From: a virus
DNA length: 32,704 nucleotides
Direction: 5' to 3' (one strand)
Virus genome (UHGV): UHGV-0173505
Part shown: positions 577 to 25,283 of the stretch, piece by piece
Position numbering within the stretch: the first letter of the stretch is position 1
Layout of the letters: every line of letters begins with the position of its first letter
Notes under the pieces: model-generated
Told to the model about the DNA's origin: nothing
The model's database searches: none
Seen by the model: the letters and a program-made list of their open reading frames with translations, nothing else
Made by a program: the position numbers and the translations under genes

Positions 577-1608
577 TCAAAAACTTGCTATTGATGTTGG
601 TAGTGTTGCCAGCGGATTAAACCGTAATGCAGTTTCCAGGTGATCCGGTGCTAGATGTGCGTAACGCATAGTCATTTTTATGTCGTGATGTCCGAGGATT
701 TTTTGCAAAGCAAGGATATTTCCACCCGACATCATAAAATGCGCCGCAAACGTATGGCGCAGAACGTGTGTCAGTTGACCGCGAGGGAGCACGATAGACG
801 TTTTTTCCATCACGGATAAAAATTGAAAATAGCAGTCTGTGAAGAAATTGAACCCATCGAGCGCCATGATCTCTTCGTAAAGCTCTTTACTGATAGGGAT
901 GCTTCTGTTTTTCTTCCCCTTCGTTCTGACAAAGGTAATTCGGTATTTGGTCACCTGTGAGCGGGTAAGGTTTATTGCTTCTCGCCAGCGTGCGCCTGTG
1001 CTTAAGCATATCTTGACTACCAGTGCCAGAATTGGGTCCTGACGTTTGCAATCATCCAGCAGTTCAACAATCTGCTCATGGGTAAGCCATGCCATCTCTT
1101 TTTCTGCGATGGTGAATTTTCGCATGTTCTCCAGTGGGTTTGGATACGACCATTCGCCCAGGCGGGATAGTTCGCTAAAAACACTACTTAGATAGCTTTG
1201 CTCCAGGTTAATGGTGACCGGGCTGGCCCCTTTCTTCCATTTCTCGCTGAAGTAGATCTCACCTGTCAGTCGTTTATCTCGATAATGGGCAAACATTTTA
1301 GATGTGAGATCGGTTGCAAGGGGATTGCCCAGAGCGTCAACCATCAGCAGCAATTTGTCATAGACATGCTGCCCAGCAGTCAGAGATTTACCATGTAGTT
1401 TGAACCATAGCTCAACCACGTCTTTCAGGGTTCGACGATCTACTGATTCGCCCAGCCAGGGCTTTGCTTCGGTTTCTTCCATCGTGTGACGCTCAAAAGC
1501 CAGTGCTTCGCCTTTGGTGGCGAATTGTTTACGCACACGACGCCCACTACGTCCGGCGGGGTAACATTCGCAAAGCCATTTTCCTGTGGTGAGTTTTCGT
1601 ACTGCCAT
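577..1608 (-). CDS. int: Tyrosine integrase, P2/186 type
   Basis: C-terminal R...HxxR...Y catalytic motifs (LRHTFAAHF...MTMRYAHL); start moved to ATG at 1608 (MAVRKL...) with GGAGGG RBS; the track ORF extends further upstream to 1686. Confidence 0.9.
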   Translation of the reverse strand: MAVRKLTTGKWLCECYPAGRSGRRVRKQFATKGEALAFERHTMEETEAKPWLGESVDRRTLKDVVELWFKLHGKSLTAGQHVYDKLLLMVDALGNPLATDLTSKMFAHYRDKRLTGEIYFSEKWKKGASPVTINLEQSYLSSVFSELSRLGEWSYPNPLENMRKFTIAEKEMAWLTHEQIVELLDDCKRQDPILALVVKICLSTGARWREAINLTRSQVTKYRITFVRTKGKKNRSIPISKELYEEIMALDGFNFFTDCYFQFLSVMEKTSIVLPRGQLTHVLRHTFAAHFMMSGGNILALQKILGHHDIKMTMRYAHLAPDHLETALRFNPLATLPTSIASF

Positions 1609-1794
1609 AAAAAATGCCCTCCAATAGAGAGCATTTTTACTGTATGTATAACCAGTGTCAATGTATGAAATCTTGCGACCATACATCTCACTGAAGCCAT
1701 AATGAAGTTGGCTATTTTTTGCTATGTGAGTATGTGACTTTTGCGGTTAGCCTGCGGCTCATTGTTATATTAGGCGCAGATATAAAAGCAAAAA

Positions 1795-2001: not shown

Positions 2002-2571
2002 TTACCTAACGTACTTAATTGTTAAACTTATAATTTTTCCAATTATTTCAACATCTTCTATCTTGCACTCGAAGGATCTGTTTCCACCTTCAACGAAGAT
2101 TCTTCCACCGGGTAAACGAGTAATGTCGCGGATTGTTATTTCGCCATCAATACTTATTACCCATTTACCATCACGTATATCATCAAATTCTTTATCACAA
2201 ATAAATTCAGAATTGTTATCTGTGATGACAAAAGGTTTTTTAAACGTAGAGGGTAGAAATCCCTTATCAAAAATATAAAAACCGTCTTCACGCAAGGCAC
2301 CATCAGATAATACATACTTAGCAACTTCCATCGTATTTGTATTACCTGAAGTTTGCTTTGAACCATGTCCAGTTGTGAGCCAATTAAGCGAGGTGCCCGT
2401 TTCAAGGGCGCACTGGATTACCCATTCTGCTGGGAATGAGTCACGCATGTAGCGTGTAGCGAGTGTACTTTTAGAGATTCCTAAATGATCGCACAACGCC
2501 TGTCGAGTTTTGAATCCATAAGCTTCTACCATGCGCTCTATAGCGCCTCGTCCGCCTTTCTCCAAATTCAT
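2002..2571 (-). CDS. cI: 186-type CI immunity repressor (N-terminal HTH, non-autocleaving C-terminal domain)
   Basis: About 190 aa, HTH near the N-terminus (ALCDHLGISKSTLATRYMR), divergent from apl/cII; no Ala-Gly/Ser-Lys LexA-type motif seen; ATG at 2571. Confidence 0.75.
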   Translation of the reverse strand: MNLEKGGRGAIERMVEAYGFKTRQALCDHLGISKSTLATRYMRDSFPAEWVIQCALETGTSLNWLTTGHGSKQTSGNTNTMEVAKYVLSDGALREDGFYIFDKGFLPSTFKKPFVITDNNSEFICDKEFDDIRDGKWVISIDGEITIRDITRLPGGRIFVEGGNRSFECKIEDVEIIGKIISLTIKYVR

Positions 2572-2577
2572 GGTCAC

Positions 2578-2696
2578 TCCAAGTGAACTTTTATCTTGAC
2601 GATTTCATGATGCGATCGTATGTTTATGGTGTTCACAAAATACAAACGATCCGTATTCGTCCTGATTAATCATCATTAAACGAGGAATGTTGCATC
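2578..2696. promoter_or_regulatory. Immunity switch region between cI and apl (lytic and lysogenic promoters and operators expected)
   Basis: Intergenic region between divergent cI and apl; TTGACG (2596-2601), 17-nt spacer, TATGTT is a candidate rightward promoter; AT-rich partial palindromes. Confidence 0.35.
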
Positions 2697-2918
2697 ATGA
2701 GACCTAACATTTCAATCACTCTTACCACGCCTCATGTGACTATTGAACGCTATAGCGAGCTGACAGGACTGTCCATCGATACCATCAATGACATGTTGGC
2801 TGATGGACGCCTTATCCGTCACCGTTTGCGTAAAGATAAAAAACGCGAAAAAGTGATGATCAACATAGCAGCCATGACCGTTGATGCGCTTTCAGAATGC
2901 AATCTAAACCTTAATTAG
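2697..2918 (+). CDS. Apl/Cox-like excisionase and lytic-switch regulator
   Basis: 73-aa basic protein, first gene of the rightward operon opposite cI, as 186 apl / P2 cox. Confidence 0.5.
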
Positions 2919-2950
2919 TTCGATTCTGAAATACATCAGAGGCATTGACC

Positions 2951-3460
2951 ATGTTTGATTACCAAGTTTCCAAACATCCACATTTTGATGAAGCCTGTCG
3001 TGCATTTGCACTGCGCCACAATCTGGTGCAACTGGCAGAACGTGCAGGCATGAATGTGCAGATTCTGCGGAACAAGCTGAACCCAGCTCAGCCTCATTTA
3101 TTAACCGCACCAGAAATCTGGCTGCTTACCGATCTGACTGAAGATTCAACGCTGGTAGATGGTTTTCTGGCACAGATTCACTGCCTGCCATGTGTACCGA
3201 TTAATGAGGTTGCAAAAGAGAAACTGCCGCATTACGTCATGAGCGCAACTGCAGAGATCGGACGTGTTGCAGCAGGTGCGGTATCTGGTGATGTAAAAAC
3301 TAGTGCCGGTCGTCGTGATGCTATCAGCAGCATTAACTCTGTAACACGACTGATGGCGCTGGCTGCTGTTTCATTGCAGGCCCGTTTACAGGCTAATCCT
3401 GCGATGGCGAGTGCAGTTGATACCGTGACTGGCCTCGGTGCTTCATTCGGTTTGCTGTGA
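2951..3460 (+). CDS. cII: CII-like lysogeny establishment regulator (186 CII type)
   Basis: 169 aa from ATG 2951 ([23 protein letters not shown]...), same position and size as 186 CII; track ORF starts at an upstream TTG. Confidence 0.65.
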
Positions 3461-3467
3461 GGTGCTT

Positions 3468-3668
3468 ATGCTGACGAAAGAACCATCATTTGCATCGCTG
3501 CTGGTAAAACAAAGCCCGGCAATGCACTACGGTCACGGCTGGATCATGGGTGAGGATGGTAAACGCTGGCATCCGTGCCGTTCACAAGATGAATTGCTGG
3601 CAGAACTATCTACGAAAAAACGGGGGAACAAATGGCTATTGAAGGCGCTGCGGCGACTGTTCCATTAA
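3468..3668 (+). CDS. Hypothetical early protein (66 aa)
   Basis: ATG 3468 with GAGGTG RBS directly after cII; position of 186 fil/dhr-type early genes. Confidence 0.4.
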   Translation: MLTKEPSFASLLVKQSPAMHYGHGWIMGEDGKRWHPCRSQDELLAELSTKKRGNKWLLKALRRLFH

Positions 3669-3973
3669 GCCCCGGTGAACGCCTGAATGGACTTAATCAC
3701 ATAGCGGAATTAAGGGCGAAAGTTTTTGGCCTGAATATTGAGTCAGAGCTTGAGCGGTTTATTAAAGATATGCGTGATCCACGGGATATCAATAACGAAC
3801 AAAATAAACGAGCACTGGCAGCCATATTCTTTATGGCAAAAATTCCGGCTGAACGTCATAGCATCAGCATCAATGAGCTGACCACTGACGAAAAGCGGGA
3901 GTTGATTAAAGCAATGAATCATTTTCGTGCAGTGGTGAGCTTATTTCCCAGACGGCTAACCATGCCGAATTAA
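3632..3973 (+). CDS. Hypothetical early protein (113 aa)
   Basis: ATG 3632 preceded by GGGGGAAC; overlaps the preceding gene by 37 nt. Confidence 0.45.
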   Translation: MAIEGAAATVPLSPGERLNGLNHIAELRAKVFGLNIESELERFIKDMRDPRDINNEQNKRALAAIFFMAKIPAERHSISINELTTDEKRELIKAMNHFRAVVSLFPRRLTMPN

Positions 3974-4040
3974 CCAACTAATGAAATTAATGGCGTAAAC
4001 CCGCCGGGTATCCCTTTATCTAAATTCAGGAGAATTGATT

Positions 4041-4274
4041 ATGCGTAATATTGAAATCCTCACGACTAAAACCGGACCGGATGATGCAGGGCTTAATATT
4101 TTACTGACAGAGGCTCGTCTGGAAGAACGCCGGGCAAGGGCTGAAGCAATGGCAGCTCGCCTTGATAGCCTGGCGTGTCATATCTCATCCCGTCAGCTAA
4201 ACCACGTGGAAGCGGCAGAACTGCTGCGTGTGACTGCTGAAGCAATCCAGAACGAAGCGCAGGAGATCCACTAA
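4041..4274 (+). CDS. Hypothetical early protein (77 aa)
   Basis: ATG 4041 with AGGAG RBS at a 9-nt spacing. Confidence 0.5.
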   Translation: MRNIEILTTKTGPDDAGLNILLTEARLEERRARAEAMAARLDSLACHISSRQLNHVEAAELLRVTAEAIQNEAQEIH

Positions 4275-4501
4275 TGGCTGATGCAATGGATCTCGTACAG
4301 CAGCGCGTTGAAGAAGAACGCCAGCGCCATATCCGTGCTGCCCGTGCCAAAACACCGGGCGTGTCTCGCGTGCTTTGCATTGAGTGTGAAGCGCCAATTC
4401 CGCCAGCACGCCGCCGTGCCATTCCGGGTGTGCAGCTTTGCATTACCTGTCAGGAAATCGCAGAGCTGAAAGGCAAACATTACAACGGAGGTGCTGTATG
4501 A
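4274..4501 (+). CDS. TraR/DksA-family C4 zinc-finger protein
   Basis: CIECEAPIP...(17 aa)...CITCQ, a CxxC-N17-CxxC motif in a 75-aa protein; AGGAG RBS; position of P2 orf82-type genes. Confidence 0.7.
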   Translation: MADAMDLVQQRVEEERQRHIRAARAKTPGVSRVLCIECEAPIPPARRRAIPGVQLCITCQEIAELKGKHYNGGAV

Positions 4502-5352
4502 GCACTATCCTGAAATGGGCGGGAAATAAAACCGCCATAATGTCCGAACTGAAAAAACACCTTCCTGCTGGCCCGCGACTGGTTGAACCTTTCGCGGGTT
4601 CCTGTGCTGTGATGATGGAGACGGATTACCCCAGCTATCTGGTTGCGGATATTAATCCTGATTTAATCAACCTCTATAAAAAGGTTGCCGCTGATTGTGA
4701 ATCGTTTATATCTCGCGCCAGAGTTTTATTTGAGATCGCAAACAGGGAGGTGGCTTATTACAACATAAGGCAGGAGTTTAATTACTCCACTGAAATTACT
4801 GATTTCATGAAAGCGGTATATTTTCTGTATCTCAATCGTCACGGTTACCGTGGTTTATGCCGCTATAACAAGAGCGGGCATTTCAACATTCCCTACGGTA
4901 ATTATAAAAATCCGTATTTCCCTGAAAAAGAAATTCGCGCATTTGCAGAAAAAGCCCAGCGGGCAACGTTTTTCTGCGCCAGCTTTGATGAAACGCTGGC
5001 GATGTTGAAGGCGGGGGATGTGGTGTATTGCGATCCGCCGTATGACGGTACGTTTTCCGGCTATCACACTGATGGTTTCACTGAAGATGACCAGTATCAC
5101 CTGGCATCCGTTCTTGAACATCGAGCATCTGAAGGACATCCGGTCATTGTTTCTAACAGTGACACGTCTTTGACCCGGTCTCTTTATCGTAATTTCACTC
5201 ACCACTACATCAGGGCGAAACGCAGCATCGGCGTTGCAGCGGGGGAGGGAAAATTTGCAACAGAGATGATTGCCACTAAATCTGCTAATTGGTTTAGTGC
5301 CGATTTTAGTAGGGGACGTGACTCTACTGTTATTTTCGGGGTGCAAGTGTGA
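4498..5352 (+). CDS. dam: DNA adenine methyltransferase (Dam family, GATC-type)
   Basis: DPPY catalytic motif ([10 protein letters not shown]), FAGSCAV AdoMet-binding motif, N-terminal ILKWAGNK; ATG 4498 with GGAGGTG RBS. Confidence 0.85.
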
Positions 5353-6179
5353 AAGAAATGCACCACGGAATTCATCATTTCCATGGGACGCCTGTCTGGG
5401 GAAGTGCTGGCGACGTTCATCGTATTGCGGTGAGCGGAGCTGGTGCTTTCGTCTCCTATGTACGACCAGATCAGATTGCGGCGTCCATTCAGCACGCTCA
5501 GGTCGTTGGCATTGATAACGGCGCATTTTCTGCATGGGGGCGTGGGCTAAAAATTAACTGGAGTGATTTTTATAAATGGCTCCTGAACTATTACCACCAT
5601 CCTAAGGTCGCTTTTTTTGTCATTCCTGATGTTGTGGACGGAGGTGAACGTGACAATGATGCCCTGATAAACGAAGTTCCGAAAATGTTCTACGGGAAGG
5701 CAACTCCCGTCTGGCATCTGCACGAGTCAATCGATCGGCTTATCGAGCTATGTCGTGAATGGCCTCGTGTCTGCTTTGGATCGTCTGGTGAATATGCGGC
5801 TATTAGAACTGCGCACTGGCATCGTCGTATGCAGGACGCTTTTGAAGCAATTTATTGCCGACACAATTTCAAAACAGCTGTTCATGGTTTGCGCATGCTT
5901 GACGGTCGTGTGTTGGGAAATTACCCACTGGCGACTGCCGACAGTACAAATCTTGCCTGCAATGTCCCCAAATTTAATAGCAAATATCCTGAGCTTACGC
6001 GGGCTATTCAGGAGGCTGAGTATTCGCGCAATCTGACGGAAAAGGAGCTGAAAGCTGTCATTCTGAAAAACCGTTGCGCAATTTTAAAAGGTGCAATTGA
6101 AGCTGTTCGCCCACCTTCAGTTTCTGACTGGCTGTCGAATGGTTTGCAGCCTTCACAGCTCGAACTGGAGATTGCGTAA
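5349..6179 (+). CDS. Hypothetical protein, possibly a TGT-fold (DpdA-like) DNA-base transglycosylase
   Basis: Translationally coupled to dam (GTGA overlap); motifs [25 protein letters not shown] loosely parallel TGT TDSGGFQ, FDEC, DMFDCV; no CxCxxC...H zinc motif. Confidence 0.3.
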
Positions 6180-8551
6180 TGAACTACAGCTATTCCTGGA
6201 ATGCTGAGAAAAAAGCAATCAATCCTTACGTAGAGACAGAAGAGCAATCTTCAGTTTCTGCGCTTTCAAACCTGATCGCTCTGTACGCTGCCGATAACGA
6301 GCAGGAACACCTGCGCCGCGAGGTACTGAGTGATCAGGTCTGGGAGCGTTATTTCTTTAATGAATCCCGTGATCCTGTCCAGCGCGAAATGGAGCAGGAT
6401 AAGCTCATTAGTCGGGCAAAGCTGGCGCATGAGCAGCAGCGTTTTAATCCAGATATGGTCATTCTGGCGGACGTCAATGCCCAGCCTTCCCATATCAGCA
6501 AGCCGCTGATGCAACGTATTGAATACTTCAGCAGCCTTGGCAGGCCAAAGGCTTATTCCCGCTATTTGCGTGAGACGATTAAGCCATGTCTGGAACGGCT
6601 GGAGCATGTACGCGACAGTCAGCTATCCACTTCTTTTCGCTTTATGGCAAGCCATGAAGGGCTGGACGGCCTGCTGATTCTGCCTGAAATGAGTCAGGAT
6701 CAGGTGAAACGCCTGTCCACCCTGGTAGCTGCGCATATGAGTATGTGCCTTGATGTAGCTTGTGGTGATTTGTATGCCACCGATGATGTTAAGCCAGAAG
6801 AAATCCGCAAGACATGGGAAAAGGTGGCTGCAGAAACCCTGCGACTGGATGTCATACCGCCTGCGTTTGAGCAACTCCGCCGGAAAAGAAACCGCCGCAA
6901 ACCTGTGCCTTATGAACTCATTCCGGGTTCGCTGGCGCGTATGCTGTGCGCCGACTGGTGGTATCGGAAATTATGGAAGATGCGTTGCGAATGGCGGGAA
7001 GAGCAGTTGCGTGCTGTCTGCCTGGTCAGCAAAAAAGCATCTCCCTATGTCAGCTATGAAGCCGTGATGCATAAACGTGAGCAGCGCCGTAAGTCGCTGG
7101 AGTTTTTCCGTTCTCATGAACTGGTGAACGAAGACGGCGACACGCTGAACATGGAGGATGTGGTAAACGCCAGCAGCAGCAACCCGGCGCATCGCCGCAA
7201 CGAGATGATGGCCTGTGTTAAAGGCCTGGAGCTTATCGCGGAAATGCGTGGTGACTGCGCCGTTTTCTACACCATCACCTGTCCGTCACGTTTCCATTCC
7301 ACGCTAAATAACGGCAGGCCAAACCCGACCTGGACCAACGCGACAGTAAGACAAAGCAGTGATTATTTGGTCGGCATGTTTGCTGCATTTCGTAAGGCGA
7401 TGCACAAAGCCGGATTGCGCTGGTATGGCGTGCGGGTGGCTGAGCCGCATCATGACGGTACAGTTCACTGGCACCTGTTGTGTTTTATGCGCAAAAAAGA
7501 CCGCCGCGCCATCACTGCATTACTGCGTAAGTTTGCCATTCGTGAAGACCGCGAGGAGCTGGGTAATAACACGGGACCACGCTTTAAGTCTGAGCTGATA
7601 AACCCGCGCAAAGGTACGCCAACAAGCTACATCGCGAAATACATCAGTAAGAACATTGACGGGCGTGGTCTGGCTGGTGAGATCAGCAAGGAAACGGGTA
7701 AATCCCTGCGTGATAACGCTGAATACGTTAATGCCTGGGCGTCTCTGCATCGTGTTCAGCAATTCCGCTTCTTTGGTATTCCGGGGCGTCAGGCTTACCG
7801 TGAACTGCGATTGCTGGCTGGTCAGGCGGCAAGGCAACAGGGGGACAAAAAAGCAGGTGCGCCGGTACTGGATAACCCGCGCCTTGATGCCATCCTGGCT
7901 GCTGCTGATGCTGGCTGTTTTGCCACCTACATCATGAAGCAGGGCGGCGTACTGGTTCCCCGCAAATATCACCTCATCAGAACCGCTTATGAAATTAACG
8001 AAGAGCCGACCGCCTATGGCGATCACGGTATTCGTATTTATGGCATCTGGTCACCCATTGCAGAGGGTAAGATCTGCACTCATGCAGTGAAGTGGAAAAT
8101 GGTTCGTAAAGCCGTTGACGTTCAGGAGGCGGCAGCCGACCAGGGCGCTTGCGCCCCTTGGACTCGTGGCAATAACTGTCCCCTTGCTGAAAATTTGCCC
8201 CAACAAGGGAAAGACAAATCAGCTGATGGGGATACCAGAACGGATATCACCCGTATGAATGACAAGGAGTTGCACGATTACCTGCACAGTATGAGCAAAA
8301 AAGAGCGCCGGGAACTGACAGCAAGATTACGCCTGGTGAAACCGAAACGGCGTAAAGACTACAAACAGCGAATTACAGACCATCAGCGACAGCAGCTTGT
8401 CTATGAACTGAAGTCCAGAGGATTTGACGGCAGCGAGAAAGAGGTCGATTTACTCCTTCGCGGTGGCAGTATTCCGTCAGGAGCAGGCCTGCGTATCTTC
8501 TATCGGAACCAGCGTTTGCAGGAAGATGATAAGTGGCGGGATCTGTATTAA
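6179..8551 (+). CDS. A: Replication initiation endonuclease A (rolling-circle nickase)
   Basis: 790 aa; HUH-type motif (VHWHLLCF) and tyrosine motif (YIAKYISKN); position upstream of the tum/cos region. Confidence 0.85.
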
Positions 8552-8620
8552 TTACGCGGGTTAACAATTCGTACTCTTAATAATACCAGGCATATCAGGC
8601 TGATGAACGTAAAAAAACGT

Positions 8621-8647
8621 TTTACATCAGTAAGATTATTATATACT
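8621..8647 (+). promoter_or_regulatory. Candidate sigma70 promoter for the tum/dinI-like operon
   Basis: TTTACA (8621-8626), about 15-nt spacer, TATACT (8642-8647); overlapped by a LexA box. Confidence 0.4.
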
Positions 8648-8663
8648 GTAAATATAAACAGTG
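8644..8663. promoter_or_regulatory. LexA (SOS) operator, TACTGTAAATATAAACAGTG
   Basis: Perfect CTGT-N8-ACAG with AT-rich spacer at 8646-8661, overlapping the -10 element. Confidence 0.7.
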
Positions 8664-8703
8664 GTTATGTATACAGTATTGCTTTGGTGTCATAGGAGGA
8701 AAG

Positions 8704-8892
8704 ATGCAGGACTATTTTTTGGAGTCTTTGAAGCTCCAGCGCATTGATTTTTTTCTTAAGCTTGTAGCGGCTAGTGAGTGTAGTGATGAAGAGAAGGGGC
8801 TGGCTCTGCAGTGGGTTTCTGAATTGACAGATGAACTCATGGCAAAAATCAGAAGCCACGAATACTGCCGGTCAATGGACGTCACCAGTTAA
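8704..8892 (+). CDS. Small SOS-controlled protein, candidate Tum-like antirepressor
   Basis: 62 aa, ATG 8704 with AGGAGGA RBS, directly downstream of the LexA box; position of 186 tum; assignment is by context. Confidence 0.4.
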   Translation: MQDYFLESLKLQRIDFFLKLVAASECSDEEKGLALQWVSELTDELMAKIRSHEYCRSMDVTS

Positions 8893-8903
8893 GGGGGATC
8901 TGT

Positions 8904-9137
8904 ATGCGCATTGAAATAATGATCGATAAAGAGCAGAAGATTAGCCAGTCTACACTGGACGCCCTTGAATCCGAGCTTTACCGTAATTTGCGCCCTCTGT
9001 ATCCCAAAACAGCAATTCGTATCCGTAAGGGCAGCGCCAATGGCGTTGAGCTGAGCGGGTTAAAACTGGATGAAGACAAAAAGCGAGTGATGGAAATTAT
9101 GCAGCAGGTCTGGGAGGACGACAGCTGGCTGCACTAA
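8904..9137 (+). CDS. DinI-family protein
   Basis: 77 aa starting MRIEIMIDK... and ending ...MEIMQQVWEDDSWLH; recalled from memory to resemble DinI in length and termini. Confidence 0.7.
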   Translation: MRIEIMIDKEQKISQSTLDALESELYRNLRPLYPKTAIRIRKGSANGVELSGLKLDEDKKRVMEIMQQVWEDDSWLH

Positions 9138-9244
9138 GTAACGTTGCGGGCGGCAGTACTTGATTCTGCCGTCGGCAAGGTTGAACAACGAGCAGGGCGA
9201 GGCGTTAGATAATAAATTACGGATTTTACAGCGGCTCGCTATTC

Positions 9245-10144
9245 TTAGAGTTGAAGAATACTTTTAATTCTCATAACTGATCCATCGAAAGTATCGGCTA
9301 TGTGATATATATTTTTTTTGTGGATTCGACTAATCCAAGATGCGGTAGCTTCTTTATCTCTGTCAACTATATAAACATCGGCTTTTGTGTTTTCTATTTC
9401 TGACCATATATGTTTATCATCGGGATTTATTTTAAGGCCAATGATGAATATTTTTGATGATTTTGAAATTTCTGTTTGAAAATCTTTTTGCTGGTTCGCA
9501 ATAAATGAAGGGCAGTGCAGAACAGTTTTGTTAGGATGGTACATTGCGACAGCTGGCGAAAGTGCGGTGTTACTTTTACAGTAATTTATTATCTTTTCAG
9601 CATTGTCATAGATGTCGATGGGACCCTCAAATATTGCATAACTTTTATCGTTAGGGATTTCAAATCTAAGATTAAAGATATTAGCACGTGGTATGAAGTT
9701 TACGGAACCGTGGATTTTTAATACTGGGATATTTTTTGGGATTCGTTCAGATGAACAGTATTGAATTAAATGTCCGACAGATGAAATAGCTTGCTCAATA
9801 AGTAAGTCATAATTTGTTGTTGCAACGCAAATGCTTTTCCTTTTTTTTAACATTTTGAATAATTTGATATATGTATTCCCTTCGTCAATAGTGAAATTTG
9901 CAAGGTAGGAACACATTTGTTTAAGTAATTCAGTTGTATCACTATTTCTTTCTTCGAAAAACCTGATCATACCTTTCTCAGGATCATCAATGAAACAATT
10001 CAAAAGGTCCCCTTCAATCGTTGAGGCGATACCGCCTTCTTCCCTCATTTTCAGGAGCAAATCTCTTCCTAAAGGTGGATTCGTTGGTTTGCATGGACCA
10101 CTGCCATAACTTGCACCTGCGCCGAATAAAAATAGAACTCCCAT
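9245..10144 (-). CDS. Standalone SIR2-like (sirtuin-fold, putative NAD-binding) protein; candidate anti-phage defence gene
   Basis: Ordered motifs FLFGAGASYGSG, TTNYD, KIHGS, FIIGLKINPDD match the GAGxS...TxNxD...HG pattern; start at ATG 10144 with GGAGG RBS (alternative ATG 10171); AT-rich. Confidence 0.6.
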   Translation of the reverse strand: MGVLFLFGAGASYGSGPCKPTNPPLGRDLLLKMREEGGIASTIEGDLLNCFIDDPEKGMIRFFEERNSDTTELLKQMCSYLANFTIDEGNTYIKLFKMLKKRKSICVATTNYDLLIEQAISSVGHLIQYCSSERIPKNIPVLKIHGSVNFIPRANIFNLRFEIPNDKSYAIFEGPIDIYDNAEKIINYCKSNTALSPAVAMYHPNKTVLHCPSFIANQQKDFQTEISKSSKIFIIGLKINPDDKHIWSEIENTKADVYIVDRDKEATASWISRIHKKNIYHIADTFDGSVMRIKSILQL

Positions 10145-10351
10145 GTAACCTCCAGCTTGTTGATTGAGCATGGGGTATTCTGCTTATTTTTGAGCGTAAT
10201 CTCTAGAACAAAATGAGCATATAAGCTTGCAAGTCTATGCCGCATGAATCCGCATGATCGTTTGAGGATTGTTTTAGCTGAGGTCCGCCAGGAATGGCGG
10301 GCTTTTGCTTATGTCATGCAGGTGCATGAAAACCACTACACAAAGCGGGCA

Positions 10352-10370
10352 GGCGTGGCGGGGATACGAG
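10352..10370. other. Probable cos (cohesive end) site, GGCGTGGCGGGGATACGAG
   Basis: Resembles the P2 19-nt cohesive end as I recall it (GGCGAGGCGGGGAAAGCAC); lies in the GC-rich non-coding stretch just downstream of portal gene Q. Confidence 0.45.
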
Positions 10371-10454
10371 CGCGCGCAACGGGGTAAAATGGCCAAAATC
10401 CGGCGCAGCCTCTGGCCCGCTGGCAGCCTCATTTTGCGTAGGGGGAAAATGTCA

Positions 10455-10494
10455 GGACAAAAAGAAACGCCCCGCAGAATGCTGCTGGGGCGTT
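10455..10494 (-). terminator. Rho-independent terminator downstream of Q (end of the leftward P-Q late operon)
   Basis: Stem AACGCCCCGCAG / CTGCTGGGGCGTT with 4-nt loop, followed on the minus strand by TTCTTTTTGT; about 35 nt past the Q stop. Confidence 0.55.
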
Positions 10495-10529
10495 GTGAGA
10501 ATTGGTCAGTTATTGATGTTGTGAGTATG

Positions 10530-23299: not shown

Positions 23300-23892
23300 T
23301 GAAACCTGTTTTTGATGAAAATGGGCTGGCTACAGTGCCGGGTGATATGCGTTGTTTTTATTATGATGCTGAAACATCTGAGTATACGGGCTGGTCTGAT
23401 GAATATATTAATACTGGCGTAAGTATGCCCGCCTGTTCAACTGGTATTGACCCTGGCGAAAACATTCCGGGAAAAGTGGCTGTATTTACAGGTAAGGGAT
23501 GGAGCCATGAAGAGGACCATCGCAATGAGACTGTTTACTCAATCGAAAATGGCGCAGCTGTTACAGTGGATTATATCGGTGCCATCAAAAACGGTTATGT
23601 CACGCTTTCACCGTTAACGCCATATGATAAATGGGATGGTGAGAAATGGGTGACAGATACTGAGGCACAACACGGTGCCGCAGTAGAAGCGGCAGAAGCT
23701 CAGCGCCAGTCACTGATTGATGCAGCAATGGCTTCCATCAGTCTGATTCAACTGAAATTGCAGGCCGGACGCAAACTGACGCAAACAGAAACAACCCGAC
23801 TAAACATCGTGTTGGATTACATTGACGCGGTGACGGCAACAGACACCAGCACCGCGCCGGATGTCATCTGGCCTGAACTGCCGGAGGCGTAG
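23299..23892 (+). CDS. G: Tail fibre assembly chaperone G (for the current H variant)
   Basis: 197 aa immediately after H; C-terminus ends ...DTSTAPDVIWPELPEA. Confidence 0.75.
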   Translation: MKPVFDENGLATVPGDMRCFYYDAETSEYTGWSDEYINTGVSMPACSTGIDPGENIPGKVAVFTGKGWSHEEDHRNETVYSIENGAAVTVDYIGAIKNGYVTLSPLTPYDKWDGEKWVTDTEAQHGAAVEAAEAQRQSLIDAAMASISLIQLKLQAGRKLTQTETTRLNIVLDYIDAVTATDTSTAPDVIWPELPEA

Positions 23893-24298
23893 GCCATTCA
23901 ATATCTGGAGCACTGGAGGTATCAACCAGTTCCAGTGCGTCCAGATAATCCAGCCACAAATTATATTGCGCCAGTTCCTCACCTTTCAGACGACCAATAG
24001 CCGCTTTACCAGGCCATTGCTTGGTATTCATATATTCGTTGGACTGATTAATCAATTGCTGTTTTTTCAATTCGGCTGCGGCAATCTGTTCCTCATGTGT
24101 TGGTGGTGGAATTTCAGACCATGCAGGAAAACCATTTTCCCCAGCGATACGGATTTTTCCTTTCGGCGGTAATCCGGAAAACTCAATATACACCTGCTCA
24201 TCAACTTCAACAGCATCATCTGGCCATGAATTTACATTGATGTAGTCATCCTTAAGCGCAGGATTCACAAAAATATTTAAAGATGGACTAAAAAACAC
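23864..24298 (-). CDS. Alternative tail fibre assembly chaperone G' (inside the invertible segment, inverted orientation)
   Basis: 144 aa, ATG 24298; C-terminus ...DTSSAPDIEWPTPPAVQAR parallels G; convergent with G, 29-bp 3' overlap. Confidence 0.7.
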   Translation of the reverse strand: MFFSPSLNIFVNPALKDDYINVNSWPDDAVEVDEQVYIEFSGLPPKGKIRIAGENGFPAWSEIPPPTHEEQIAAAELKKQQLINQSNEYMNTKQWPGKAAIGRLKGEELAQYNLWLDYLDALELVDTSSAPDIEWPTPPAVQAR

Positions 24299-24299
24299 A

Positions 24300-24647
24300 T
24301 CACCCTCCTATAGCAACATAACAGCCCGATACAGGATTTGCGGCAGTCGCTACGCTGGAAAAACCACGAAAGCCGCTTTTTGTGATTGCGGAGGCAGATA
24401 GTATTCCGGCACCCGAAGGTGTATGCCCCACGTGGCTGGCAACCATCACGTAGCACGCCGACGGAAAAGCGAAAGGGAAATTGTTTAAATATCCCGCATC
24501 ATCCCCCAGACTTCCCCCAAACTGCCCCACTCCCCACTGGATAATAAGTGGTCTCCGAACGCCAGAAATAATTAATGGAATTGCTACATACCCATTCACC
24601 AACATAGCGCCGGTTGTTGCGCCAGCCAGAGCCAATTCCCCCAAACC
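24300..24647 (-). CDS. Promoterless alternative tail-fibre C-terminal cassette H' (expressed only after inversion fuses it to the constant part of H)
   Basis: Reverse complement from the crossover at 24647 reads in frame with H codons ...TYL/GLGELALAGATTG... for 116 codons to TGA at 24300-24302. Confidence 0.6.
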   Translation of the reverse strand, partial: GLGELALAGATTGAMLVNGYVAIPLIISGVRRPLIIQWGVGQFGGSLGDDAGYLNNFPFAFPSACYVMVASHVGHTPSGAGILSASAITKSGFRGFSSVATAANPVSGCYVAIGG

Positions 24648-24661
24648 AACGTTTAAGAAAA
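24636..24661. promoter_or_regulatory. Right crossover site of the invertible segment (TTCCCCCAAACC-AA-CGTTTAAGAAAA)
   Basis: Inverted copy of the inner half of the left site (GGTTTGGGGGAA vs GGTTTGGGAGAA); about 50 bp upstream of the invertase gene. Confidence 0.6.
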
Positions 24662-24710
24662 TGCAGAGGTAACAGCTAACTGGCATCATCTCCGGTTTTT
24701 ATTCAGGGGG

Positions 24711-25283
24711 ATGATCAGGCTTATTGGCTATGTACGCGTGTCAACAAATGACCAGAACACCGATTTGCAACGTAATGCACTGAACTGCGCGGGATGTGAG
24801 CAGATTTTTGAGGACAAAATCAGTGGCACTAAGTCCGACAGACCGGGGCTGAAAAAACTACTCAGGACACTATCGGCAGGAGACACGCTGGTTGTGTGGA
24901 AGCTGGACAGGTTGGGGCGCAGTATGCGGCATCTTGTTACGCTGATAGAAGAGTTGCGCCAGCGTGGTGTGAATTTCAGAAGCCTGACTGACAGTATTGA
25001 TACCAGTACCCCAATGGGCCGTTTCTTTTTTCATGTCATGGGTGCCCTGGCTGAAATGGAACGCGAACTGATAGTTGAACGTACCAGGGCGGGGCTGGCT
25101 GCAGCCCGTGCTAAAGGCAGAGTAGGTGGACGCCGTCCTAAGTTGACCAGCGAACAGTGGGCACAGATTGGGCGTTTACTCGAGGCCGGAGAATCAAGAC
25201 AGCGTATTGCACTGATTTTTGATGTAGGCGTTTCTACCATTTATCGAAAATTTCCGGCAAATAAGAACAATAAATCTCCCTGA
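24711..25283 (+). CDS. Serine-recombinase DNA invertase (Hin/Gin/Cin/Pin family)
   Basis: 190 aa; N-terminal catalytic motif IGYVRVSTNDQNTDLQ, resolvase core, C-terminal HTH (VGVSTIYRKF). Confidence 0.9.
   Translation: MIRLIGYVRVSTNDQNTDLQRNALNCAGCEQIFEDKISGTKSDRPGLKKLLRTLSAGDTLVVWKLDRLGRSMRHLVTLIEELRQRGVNFRSLTDSIDTSTPMGRFFFHVMGALAEMERELIVERTRAGLAAARAKGRVGGRRPKLTSEQWAQIGRLLEAGESRQRIALIFDVGVSTIYRKFPANKNNKSP

Follow-up and report, generated by a model that had tools for sequence, protein, structure and literature searches.

What kind of protein does a phage encode between its DNA adenine methyltransferase and its replication initiator? The question is raised by virus genome UHGV-0173505, a stretch of 32,704 nucleotides (nt) that we analysed at its full length and call the window, in which a dam gene runs directly into an open reading frame (ORF) for a protein of 276 amino acids (aa). 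An earlier reading of this DNA from its letters alone, here called the original prediction, had proposed that dam is translationally coupled to a gene for a possible DpdA-like protein with the fold of a tRNA-guanine transglycosylase (TGT), and that the two genes form a DNA-modification module; the TGT assignment had been made by eye and was described as weak. We find that the 276-aa protein almost certainly belongs to the phage DpdA family. The best overall explanation of the locus, which we consider probable, is a phage DpdA that acts on DNA, is made from an early operon and, together with Dam, gives the phage DNA two marks. Rechecking the ORFs and the sequence returned the same coordinates for both genes as the original prediction, and the same GTGA overlap between them:

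4498..5352, plus strand: dam, Dam-family (D12 class) N6-adenine DNA methyltransferase, 284 aa, with FAGSCAV and DPPY motifs
5349..6179, plus strand: dpdA, predicted TGT-fold DNA guanine transglycosylase of the phage DpdA family, 276 aa (alternative start ATG 5358, 273 aa)
5349..5352, plus strand: GTGA, the GTG start of dpdA over the TGA stop of dam, read from the sequence
5338..5341, plus strand: putative Shine-Dalgarno-like GGGG, 7 nt upstream of GTG 5349 and inside the end of dam

Family and fold of the 276-aa protein

The assignment to the DpdA family comes from several independent comparisons. The 276-aa protein matches PHROG 887, 'queuine tRNA-ribosyltransferase', with an E-value of 8.4e-96; the DpdA of Escherichia phage CAjan falls into the same group (8.2e-96), as do the proteins of phages 7-11, MED16 and SEN1. 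In tblastn comparisons, its identity is 75% to proteins, annotated as hypothetical, of the P2-like Salmonella phages SEN1 and SI22, 55% to gp38 of Pantoea phage MED16 and 34% to a protein of Salmonella phage 7-11, and the matches to SEN1, MED16 and 7-11 span more than 90% of the length. The SEN1 protein (YP_009217891, gp38) has been catalogued as a DpdA without phage preQ0 genes (Hutinet et al. 2019; supplement of PMC6884629), and the branch of MED16 DpdA had SEN1 gp38 and SW9 gp39 as its sole viral homologues (PMC8306585). P2-like phages with dpdA were therefore catalogued in both 2019 and 2021, and the window gene extends an already known enzyme family. When we aligned a profile of 64 family members, 28–60% identical to the 276-aa protein, with CAjan DpdA using hhalign, the match had a probability of 98.8% (E = 8e-17) and paired IDNGAFS with LDSGAFS and ADST with CDSS. 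The family is large, with 4312 homologues in a 90%-clustered collection that fall into 551 clusters at 50% identity. By the PHROG 887 match, the CAjan profile alignment and the catalogued SEN1 homologue, the by-eye call of the original prediction was right at the family level.

Several searches weigh against this assignment. The 276-aa protein has no meaningful match in Pfam, NCBIfam, PADLOC (including its Dpd models) or, by phmmer, the PDB sequences; the 64-member profile did not find TGT among the PDB sequences either, returning only chance matches to GCN4 coiled coils and a snake-venom protease. Aligned by hhalign with the single E. coli Tgt sequence, the same profile gave a probability of 0.6%, and none of its 64 members matches the Pfam TGT model. 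However, the experimentally supported DpdAs of CAjan, phage 7-11 and MED16 miss the Pfam TGT model as well, so this miss says little for the clade.

Structure prediction, which the original prediction had proposed as a check, gave a TGT-like result. The AlphaFold2 model (pLDDT 85, pTM 0.82) alternates strands and helices in a TGT-like (beta/alpha)8 barrel, and its nearest structures are Cap10, bacterial DpdA and archaeal TGT. In BFVD there are 31 matches at E <= 1e-3, of which the named ones are all queuine or queuosine tRNA-ribosyltransferases, save one ART-PolyVal-like entry. The only residues that are invariant in the 64-member alignment are D56, D94, H123, H179, D198 and S199; in the model each sits at the C-terminal end of a strand or just beyond it, with D198 inside the predicted strand 196-199.

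The three Asp-containing motifs that had been set beside the TGT motifs TDSGGFQ, FDEC and DMFDCV are present, at residues 52-61 (a ten-residue stretch that includes IDNGAF), 89-96 (FFVIPDVV) and 197-203 (ADSTNLA). The parallel drawn between these motifs and those of TGT holds in part. It is borne out for D56 and D198 by the alignment with CAjan DpdA, and the D-x-G-x-F pattern around D56 is that of E. coli Tgt D89 (TDSGGFQ). For D94 the parallel is unproven: in the alignment with CAjan this residue is opposite a Ser, and an Asp follows three positions further on, which makes its equivalence to the FDEC aspartate doubtful and counts against the assignment. The roles that we tentatively give to the three residues follow what is established for catalysis by TGT and bacterial DpdA (PMC10164549); D56 and D198 would then correspond to D89 and D264 of TGT and to D95 and D256 of bacterial DpdA.

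5514..5516, plus strand: codon for Asp56 (IDNGAF), predicted general acid/base; invariant, aligns with CAjan LDSGAFS
5628..5630, plus strand: codon for Asp94 (IPDV), candidate base-recognition aspartate; invariant in the family, role uncertain
5940..5942, plus strand: codon for Asp198 (ADST), predicted catalytic nucleophile; D198-S199 invariant, aligns with CAjan CDSS

The TGT zinc motif is absent, as had been noted: there is no CxCxxC...H pattern, and the protein has five Cys in total. Because CAjan DpdA and Cap10 also lack the motif, its absence is a feature of the minimal branch and no argument against membership.

Comparison with characterized enzymes places the protein more exactly. Its direct homologues are the 'DpdA-only' phage enzymes (SEN1 gp38, SW9 gp39, MED16 gp38 and 7-11 gp032), which share its PHROG and whose phages, like the window phage, have a short zinc-less DpdA and do not encode preQ0 genes. 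SEN1, another P2-like phage, has dpdA in the matching place, overlapping gene A, but with a DUF5405 gene upstream where the window has dam. MED16 and phage 7-11 are virulent and belong to other families; the modified base dADG has been measured in these two alone, whereas the P2-like members are known by sequence. More distant is DpdA1 of the Queuovirinae (Escherichia phages CAjan and 9g), which falls into PHROG 887 and in which D-x-G-A-F-S, (A/C)-D-S-(T/S), H123 and H179 are aligned; CAjan DpdA resembles the window protein in having no Cys/His zinc motif, at an identity of ~21%.

The protein is distinct from the DpdA of bacterial Dpd systems, from canonical Tgt and from Cap10. Bacterial DpdA (Salmonella Montevideo, PDB 7UI4) shares no detectable sequence similarity with it, in line with the lack of a PADLOC match; the bacterial enzyme has a CXCX2CX22H zinc site and a large Ins8 helical insertion (PMC10164549), neither of which is found in the window protein, and a chain of 413-436 aa compared with 276 aa. 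In addition, the Dpd system is a host defence comprising dpdB (a ParB-like ATPase), dpdC and the restriction genes dpdD-K, whereas the neighbours of the phage gene are a zinc-finger gene, dam and gene A. Tgt (Pfam PF01702) has the common superfamily fold and the same order of three Asp motifs (D89, D143 and D264 in E. coli; D56, D94 and D198 here), but the window protein is ~100 residues shorter, has no zinc domain and is predicted to use DNA as its substrate where Tgt uses tRNA.

The 276-aa ORF, which runs from GTG 5349 to TAA 6177-6179, is a real gene under strong purifying selection, with dN of 0.14-0.24, saturated dS and a dN/dS ratio of ~0.06 where it can be computed. It could be taken for a decaying or non-functional remnant, or for a mis-called frame, given that all listed RefSeq genomes of E. 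coli annotate it only as 'hypothetical protein' and that neither Pfam nor NCBIfam has a family for it. Such a reading is at odds with the dN/dS ratio and the saturation of synonymous change, with the thousands of homologues in 551 clusters and with invariant catalytic residues in a confidently predicted fold; the conservation data effectively refute it already, and we leave it almost no weight.

Coupling of dpdA to adenine methylases

The identity of the upstream gene is clear. The dam ORF starts at ATG 4498 and stops at TGA 5350-5352, and its product matches Pfam PF02086 (MethyltransfD12, 1.9e-75, 254 bits with a cut-off of 22), TIGR00571 dam (317 bits, cut-off 115) and the PADLOC orphan methyltransferase model (1e-109); against the E. 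coli Dam equivalog model it stays below the cut-off (287 versus 441). Its predicted target is GATC. On its other side dam adjoins a zinc-finger gene, and dpdA is followed by gene A:

4274..4501, plus strand: DksA/TraR-type C4 zinc-finger gene (Pfam zf-dskA_traR 3.1e-11; PHROG 54)
6179..8551, plus strand: P2-type replication initiator gene A (Pfam Phage_GPA 8.3e-127)

The stop codon of the zinc-finger gene overlaps the start of dam (ATGA), and that of dpdA overlaps the ATG of gene A (TAATG at 6177-6181). Because stop/start overlaps thus chain the zinc-finger gene, dam, dpdA and gene A, co-production of Dam, DpdA and GpA during phage replication is probable. A promoter and terminator scan of positions 2500-9300 returned sites at no more than the chance level and found no terminator between the genes.

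The junction between dam and dpdA depends on which start codon is used. RefSeq/PGAP places the start at ATG 5358, nine bases downstream of the GTG (273 aa, WP_001420002.1-type), which would replace the overlap by a 5-nt gap. A 4-nt overlap of the dam stop and the dpdA start is also found in Atlantibacter (locus L012, TTGA) and Enterobacter (L019 and L020), in gene pairs that are ~70-84% identical. This retention in other genera, together with the better Shine-Dalgarno-like element of the GTG, suggests that the RefSeq start may be three codons short. Conservation of the overlap in orthologous pairs is, at the level of sequence, what is expected of translationally coupled genes. Across the same junction, an antisense ORF of 226 aa lies on the minus strand (4855-5535), for which we saw no evidence that it is a gene.

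To describe the neighbourhood in viruses, we counted genes within 5 kb of the dpdA homologue in the 80 closest IMG/VR loci. The gene for GpA lies directly downstream of dpdA in 76 of them. Directly upstream, dam is found in 50, and its presence follows relatedness: 47 of 50 loci at >=80% identity have it, compared with 3 of 30 at 70-79%. The remaining loci have a DUF5405 gene or a zinc-finger gene upstream of dpdA in its place, and the SEN1-like phages, which carry dpdA without dam, show that the pairing is not obligatory; this counts against a fixed two-gene unit. In bacterial chromosomes, dpdA is present in 107 of 5426 complete E. coli genomes (~2%), at >=99% identity in 101, and among the matches listed the full-length copies have dam and a replication endonuclease gene on either side and the label 'hypothetical protein'.

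The gene appears to have been added to an existing dam locus. The orphan Dam of P2-like phages (Escherichia phage Cartapus gp42, Klebsiella phage KP12) is encoded at the same operon position by a gene to which window dam is 91-96% identical, but in phages of this type dam overlaps gene A directly, whereas in the window dpdA lies in between and the last ~80 bp of dam are divergent. Compared with Cartapus (L004) over positions 5273-6185, DNA similarity ends ~80 bp before the end of dam and returns at the start of gene A. We conclude that dpdA is an optional gene that was inserted between dam and gene A; the break inside the 3' end of dam indicates that the insert seemingly arrived with a different dam 3' end, which suggests acquisition by recombination with another dam-dpdA phage.

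Homologues also occur at unrelated positions. In a lambdoid prophage of E. coli (CP057104.1, L018:4001-4810), a 67%-identical homologue lies between holin and endolysin genes, in a different type of phage where it would be expressed with the late genes; a ParB_N-N6_N4 methylase gene is situated ~800 bp downstream of it. Another distant homologue (L011) adjoins NinB. These unrelated positions mark dpdA as a mobile accessory gene.

Further signs of a functional link to adenine methylation come from fusion proteins. In Rosenbergiella metrosideri JB07 (NZ_JALBCV010000011.1, L014:4977-6710), a single ORF of 577 aa encodes a full DpdA, 62% identical to the window protein, joined by a Gly/Lys-rich linker to a full D12 Dam. 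A second, far more diverged DpdA-Dam fusion is P0272 (L022/L023:5001-6728), and in P0274 (L024:721-2172) a DpdA that is 59% identical is fused to an MT-A70 adenine methylase, which belongs to another methylase family. These methylase fusions retain the DpdA motifs (DNGAF/Y, HGLR, ADST) as well as the methylase motifs (DPPY or DPPW). A further fusion, P0208 (335 aa), joins an N-terminal QueD/PTPS domain (PF01242, 1.2e-24) to a DpdA domain that is 38% identical to the window protein. Moreover, a gene for a small membrane protein of the Vut_1 family (PF02592, YhhQ family), the family of the preQ0 importer, overlaps the start of the fusion in L022 (4564-5031), L023 (4564-5031) and L024 (275-748). 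There is no such gene in the window. The P0272 and P0274 loci suggest a compact cassette that imports, inserts and methylates, and the QueD fusion, the YhhQ-type neighbours and the methylase fusions together tie the DpdA family to preQ0 metabolism and N6-adenine methylation.

Three further candidates were dropped as fusion evidence and are probably deletions, chimeras or assembly artefacts: P0011, in which Dam 1-192 runs into DpdA 48-276, resembles the product of an internal deletion, P0121 (DpdA and the baseplate hub GpD) looks like a chimera, and P0273 joins a DpdA at 99% identity to 300 unassigned C-terminal residues.

These data bear on whether Dam and DpdA cooperate at all, or are independent accessory genes that share a slot upstream of gene A and constitute no module. 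Independence is compatible with related Cartapus-type prophages in which dam runs straight into gene A, with the ~1240 E. coli genomes that match a query over the zinc-finger gene, dam and dpdA set against only ~102-107 that have dpdA, and with the SEN1-like arrangement. It does not account for one-ORF fusions of DpdA to D12 Dam (L014 and P0272) and to MT-A70 (P0274) with their catalytic motifs intact, for the 4-nt overlap kept in diverged pairs or for adenine methylases near dpdA in other contexts (MED16 gp32 and the methylase of L018). The fusions to Dam and MT-A70 methylases argue for a functional link beyond adjacency, and we regard independence of the two genes as rather unlikely, although it retains appreciable weight. 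The module of the original prediction therefore stands in part: adjacency in 50 of the 80 loci and the fusions favour it, the dam-less SEN1-like branch does not, and the Dam-DpdA pairing is best described as lineage-specific but recurrent. The two main surveys of DpdA (PMC6884629, PMC10516641) do not mention an association with adenine methylases, and in the literature we found no dedicated study of DpdA in P2-like or temperate prophages or of DpdA-methylase fusions.

Proposed chemistry and purpose of the modification

We propose that the 276-aa protein is a zinc-less, minimal member of the TGT (TIM-barrel) superfamily that acts on DNA. Upon induction or infection, the early (lytic) operon would yield Dam, DpdA and GpA at the same time. 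In a mechanism modelled on the homologous TGT and bacterial DpdA, Asp198 would attack C1' of a target deoxyguanosine and guanine would be released; Asp56 would then activate N9 of the incoming 7-deazaguanine base, preQ0, which would replace guanine in a double displacement. The preQ0 would be supplied by the queuosine pathway of the host (FolE, QueD, QueE, QueC). From two 'DpdA-only' relatives, we expect replacement to be confined to a small fraction of G (~0.02-0.13%), with dADG as a possible final base. Host YaaA, which belongs to DUF328 as DpdC does, is a candidate for the formation of dADG. Dam would methylate adenines, and the packaged DNA would carry two marks, whose most plausible purpose is to shield it from host nucleases.

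The source of the base is constrained by gene content. Neither the window nor the 80 viral loci contain genes for preQ0 synthesis or uptake, as searched by tblastn with CAjan FolE, QueD, QueE, QueC and YhhQ-like proteins (que/YhhQ), which would leave the host as the source of the base. preQ0 is a normal product of E. coli, and queA and tgt are present in K-12. In this respect the window phage differs from CAjan, which has its own FolE, QueD, QueE, QueC and YhhQ-like genes beside dpdA. CAjan replaces ~32% of its G, and deletion of its dpdA abolishes dPreQ0 (both PMC6884629).

How far this scheme holds for the window phage can be judged from its closest characterized relatives. MED16 DNA contains dADG at ~0.13% of G, plus m6dA (PMC8306585). 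Other observations weigh against a substantial modification or a protective one. Phage 7-11 DNA contains dADG at ~0.02% of G (PMC6884629), so that the base is sparse in both tested relatives; Mycobacterium phage Orion, which is also DpdA-only, shows no modification at all (PMC6884629); and the dADG of MED16 gave no detectable protection from the restriction enzymes tested (PMC8306585). We still judge it fairly likely that the window DpdA modifies DNA in vivo. The original prediction had seen an anti-restriction strategy in the combination with adenine methylation, and here our estimate is lower: a benefit of the window DpdA against restriction is a tentative idea that we doubt somewhat more than we credit. 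The reasons are that MED16, the sole restriction-tested DpdA-only phage, was unprotected and that Dag glycosylases attack 7-deazaguanine DNA. Such host enzymes act specifically on this DNA (bioRxiv 10.1101/2025.10.29.685425), so that carriage of dpdA is a trade-off.

The same data suggest an alternative in which the protein is a genuine DNA transglycosylase whose sparse marks are no restriction shield but serve to mark sites for replication or packaging, to tune expression or to counter host defences that do not use classical restriction enzymes. The very low densities in phages 7-11 and MED16 and the lack of a detectable effect on the enzymes tested with MED16 are what such a role would predict, and the nearly constant position of dpdA in P2-like phages, directly upstream of gene A and overlapping it in 76 of the 80 loci, would suit a function in replication. 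A replication-specific role is, however, difficult to reconcile with the homologues beside holin and endolysin genes (L018) or NinB (L011), and any role other than shielding must be set against the protection from restriction that dense dPreQ0 or dG+ from related DpdAs confers on DNA (PMC6884629; PMC10484667). On balance we think it unlikely that the marks have no shielding function, but this alternative accounts for real features of the relatives.

A different substrate is a more distant alternative still. The best structural match of the protein is Cap10 of type IV CBASS (PDB 9NTN), which has the TGT fold without a zinc site and an Asp/His catalytic pair, comparable to the invariant H179 and D198. 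The ligand of Cap10 is a protein N-terminus that bears 7-amido-7-deazaguanine, and its partners are Cap9 and a CD-NTase. A TGT-fold enzyme of the window phage could therefore be imagined to act on a protein-linked 7-deazaguanine in a Cap10-like manner, possibly as an anti-CBASS decoy, or on host tRNA. However, neither a Cap9 (QueC-like) gene nor a CD-NTase with an N-terminal MGGSGG-type tail was found among the window ORFs scanned, identity to Cap10 is 10-13%, the fusion partners that we found are DNA methylases, and the sequence homology is to phage DpdAs whose genomes carry 7-deazaguanines in their DNA. We consider a non-DNA substrate very unlikely, and DNA the probable target of the phage DpdA.

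If the two enzymes do write on the same DNA, they could conceivably write on the same sites. Characterized phage DpdAs target G in 'GA', as found for CAjan (PMC8306585) and for iggy (PMC10484667). Given this preference and the A that Dam methylates in GATC, joint writing of GATC is conceivable, with DpdA and the adenine methylase forming a two-headed writer that produces a doubly modified G*A*TC (7-deaza-G beside m6A). The window contains 111 GATC sites, whose guanines make up ~1.3% of its G. We regard this as a speculation with little probability of being correct. If true, it would explain both the sparse replacement of 0.02-0.13% of G in DpdA-only phages and the independent fusions to two unrelated families of adenine methylases, and it might allow a Dam-methylating phage to escape methyl-directed (DpnI-like) nucleases.

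The prophage setting and its implications

The gene order read from the window ORFs is that of a P2/186-like prophage, which looks complete. The rightward early operon comprises, in order, CII, DUF5347, DUF2732, the DksA/TraR zinc-finger gene, dam, the 276-aa ORF and gene A; 3' of it lie a cargo slot, the Q-P/O-N-M head genes, and the lysis and tail genes. On the opposite strand are:

577-1686, minus strand: integrase
2002-2577, minus strand: CI-type repressor

Two other parts of the prophage deserve description. The variable cargo slot lies between gene A/DinI and the portal gene. It holds a 308-aa gene on the minus strand (9245-10171) that has a weak SIR2-like domain (Pfam SIR2_2 1.7e-5; PADLOC PDC-S25 1.3e-7, and several SIR2 models) and is possibly a prophage-borne defence gene. 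The segment that holds it (8560-10520) is matched over >=80% of its stretch in 4 of 5426 complete E. coli genomes, where the gene is labelled 'hypothetical'. In E. coli ZF34, the closest E. coli relative, the same backbone has in this slot (L016:23190-25272) a DNA cytosine methyltransferase and a NotI-family restriction endonuclease in place of the SIR2-like gene, which makes the slot a swap site for defence cargo. Further downstream, within the region 23864-25283, a Hin/Cin-type serine invertase (24711-25283; Resolvase 2.3e-53) adjoins oppositely oriented ORFs on the minus strand for a tail-fibre C-terminus (24300-24689) and a tail-fibre-assembly protein (23864-24298); this arrangement looks like an invertible host-range switch.

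Through its assignment to DpdA, a gene known in RefSeq as 'hypothetical protein', with thousands of relatives outside the reach of Pfam and NCBIfam models, now has a name and a chemistry that can be tested. The que genetics of E. coli are well understood, and lysogens of an inducible P2-like prophage in this host, for example APEC O78 or ZF34, would be a convenient system in which to address the purpose of the 'DpdA-only' enzymes. The repeated association of DpdA with adenine methylases, which extends to fusions with two unrelated families, points to two DNA marks that cooperate. Because hosts have glycosylases against 7-deazaguanine DNA (bioRxiv 10.1101/2025.10.29.685425), these marks are also relevant to the conflict between phages and their hosts.

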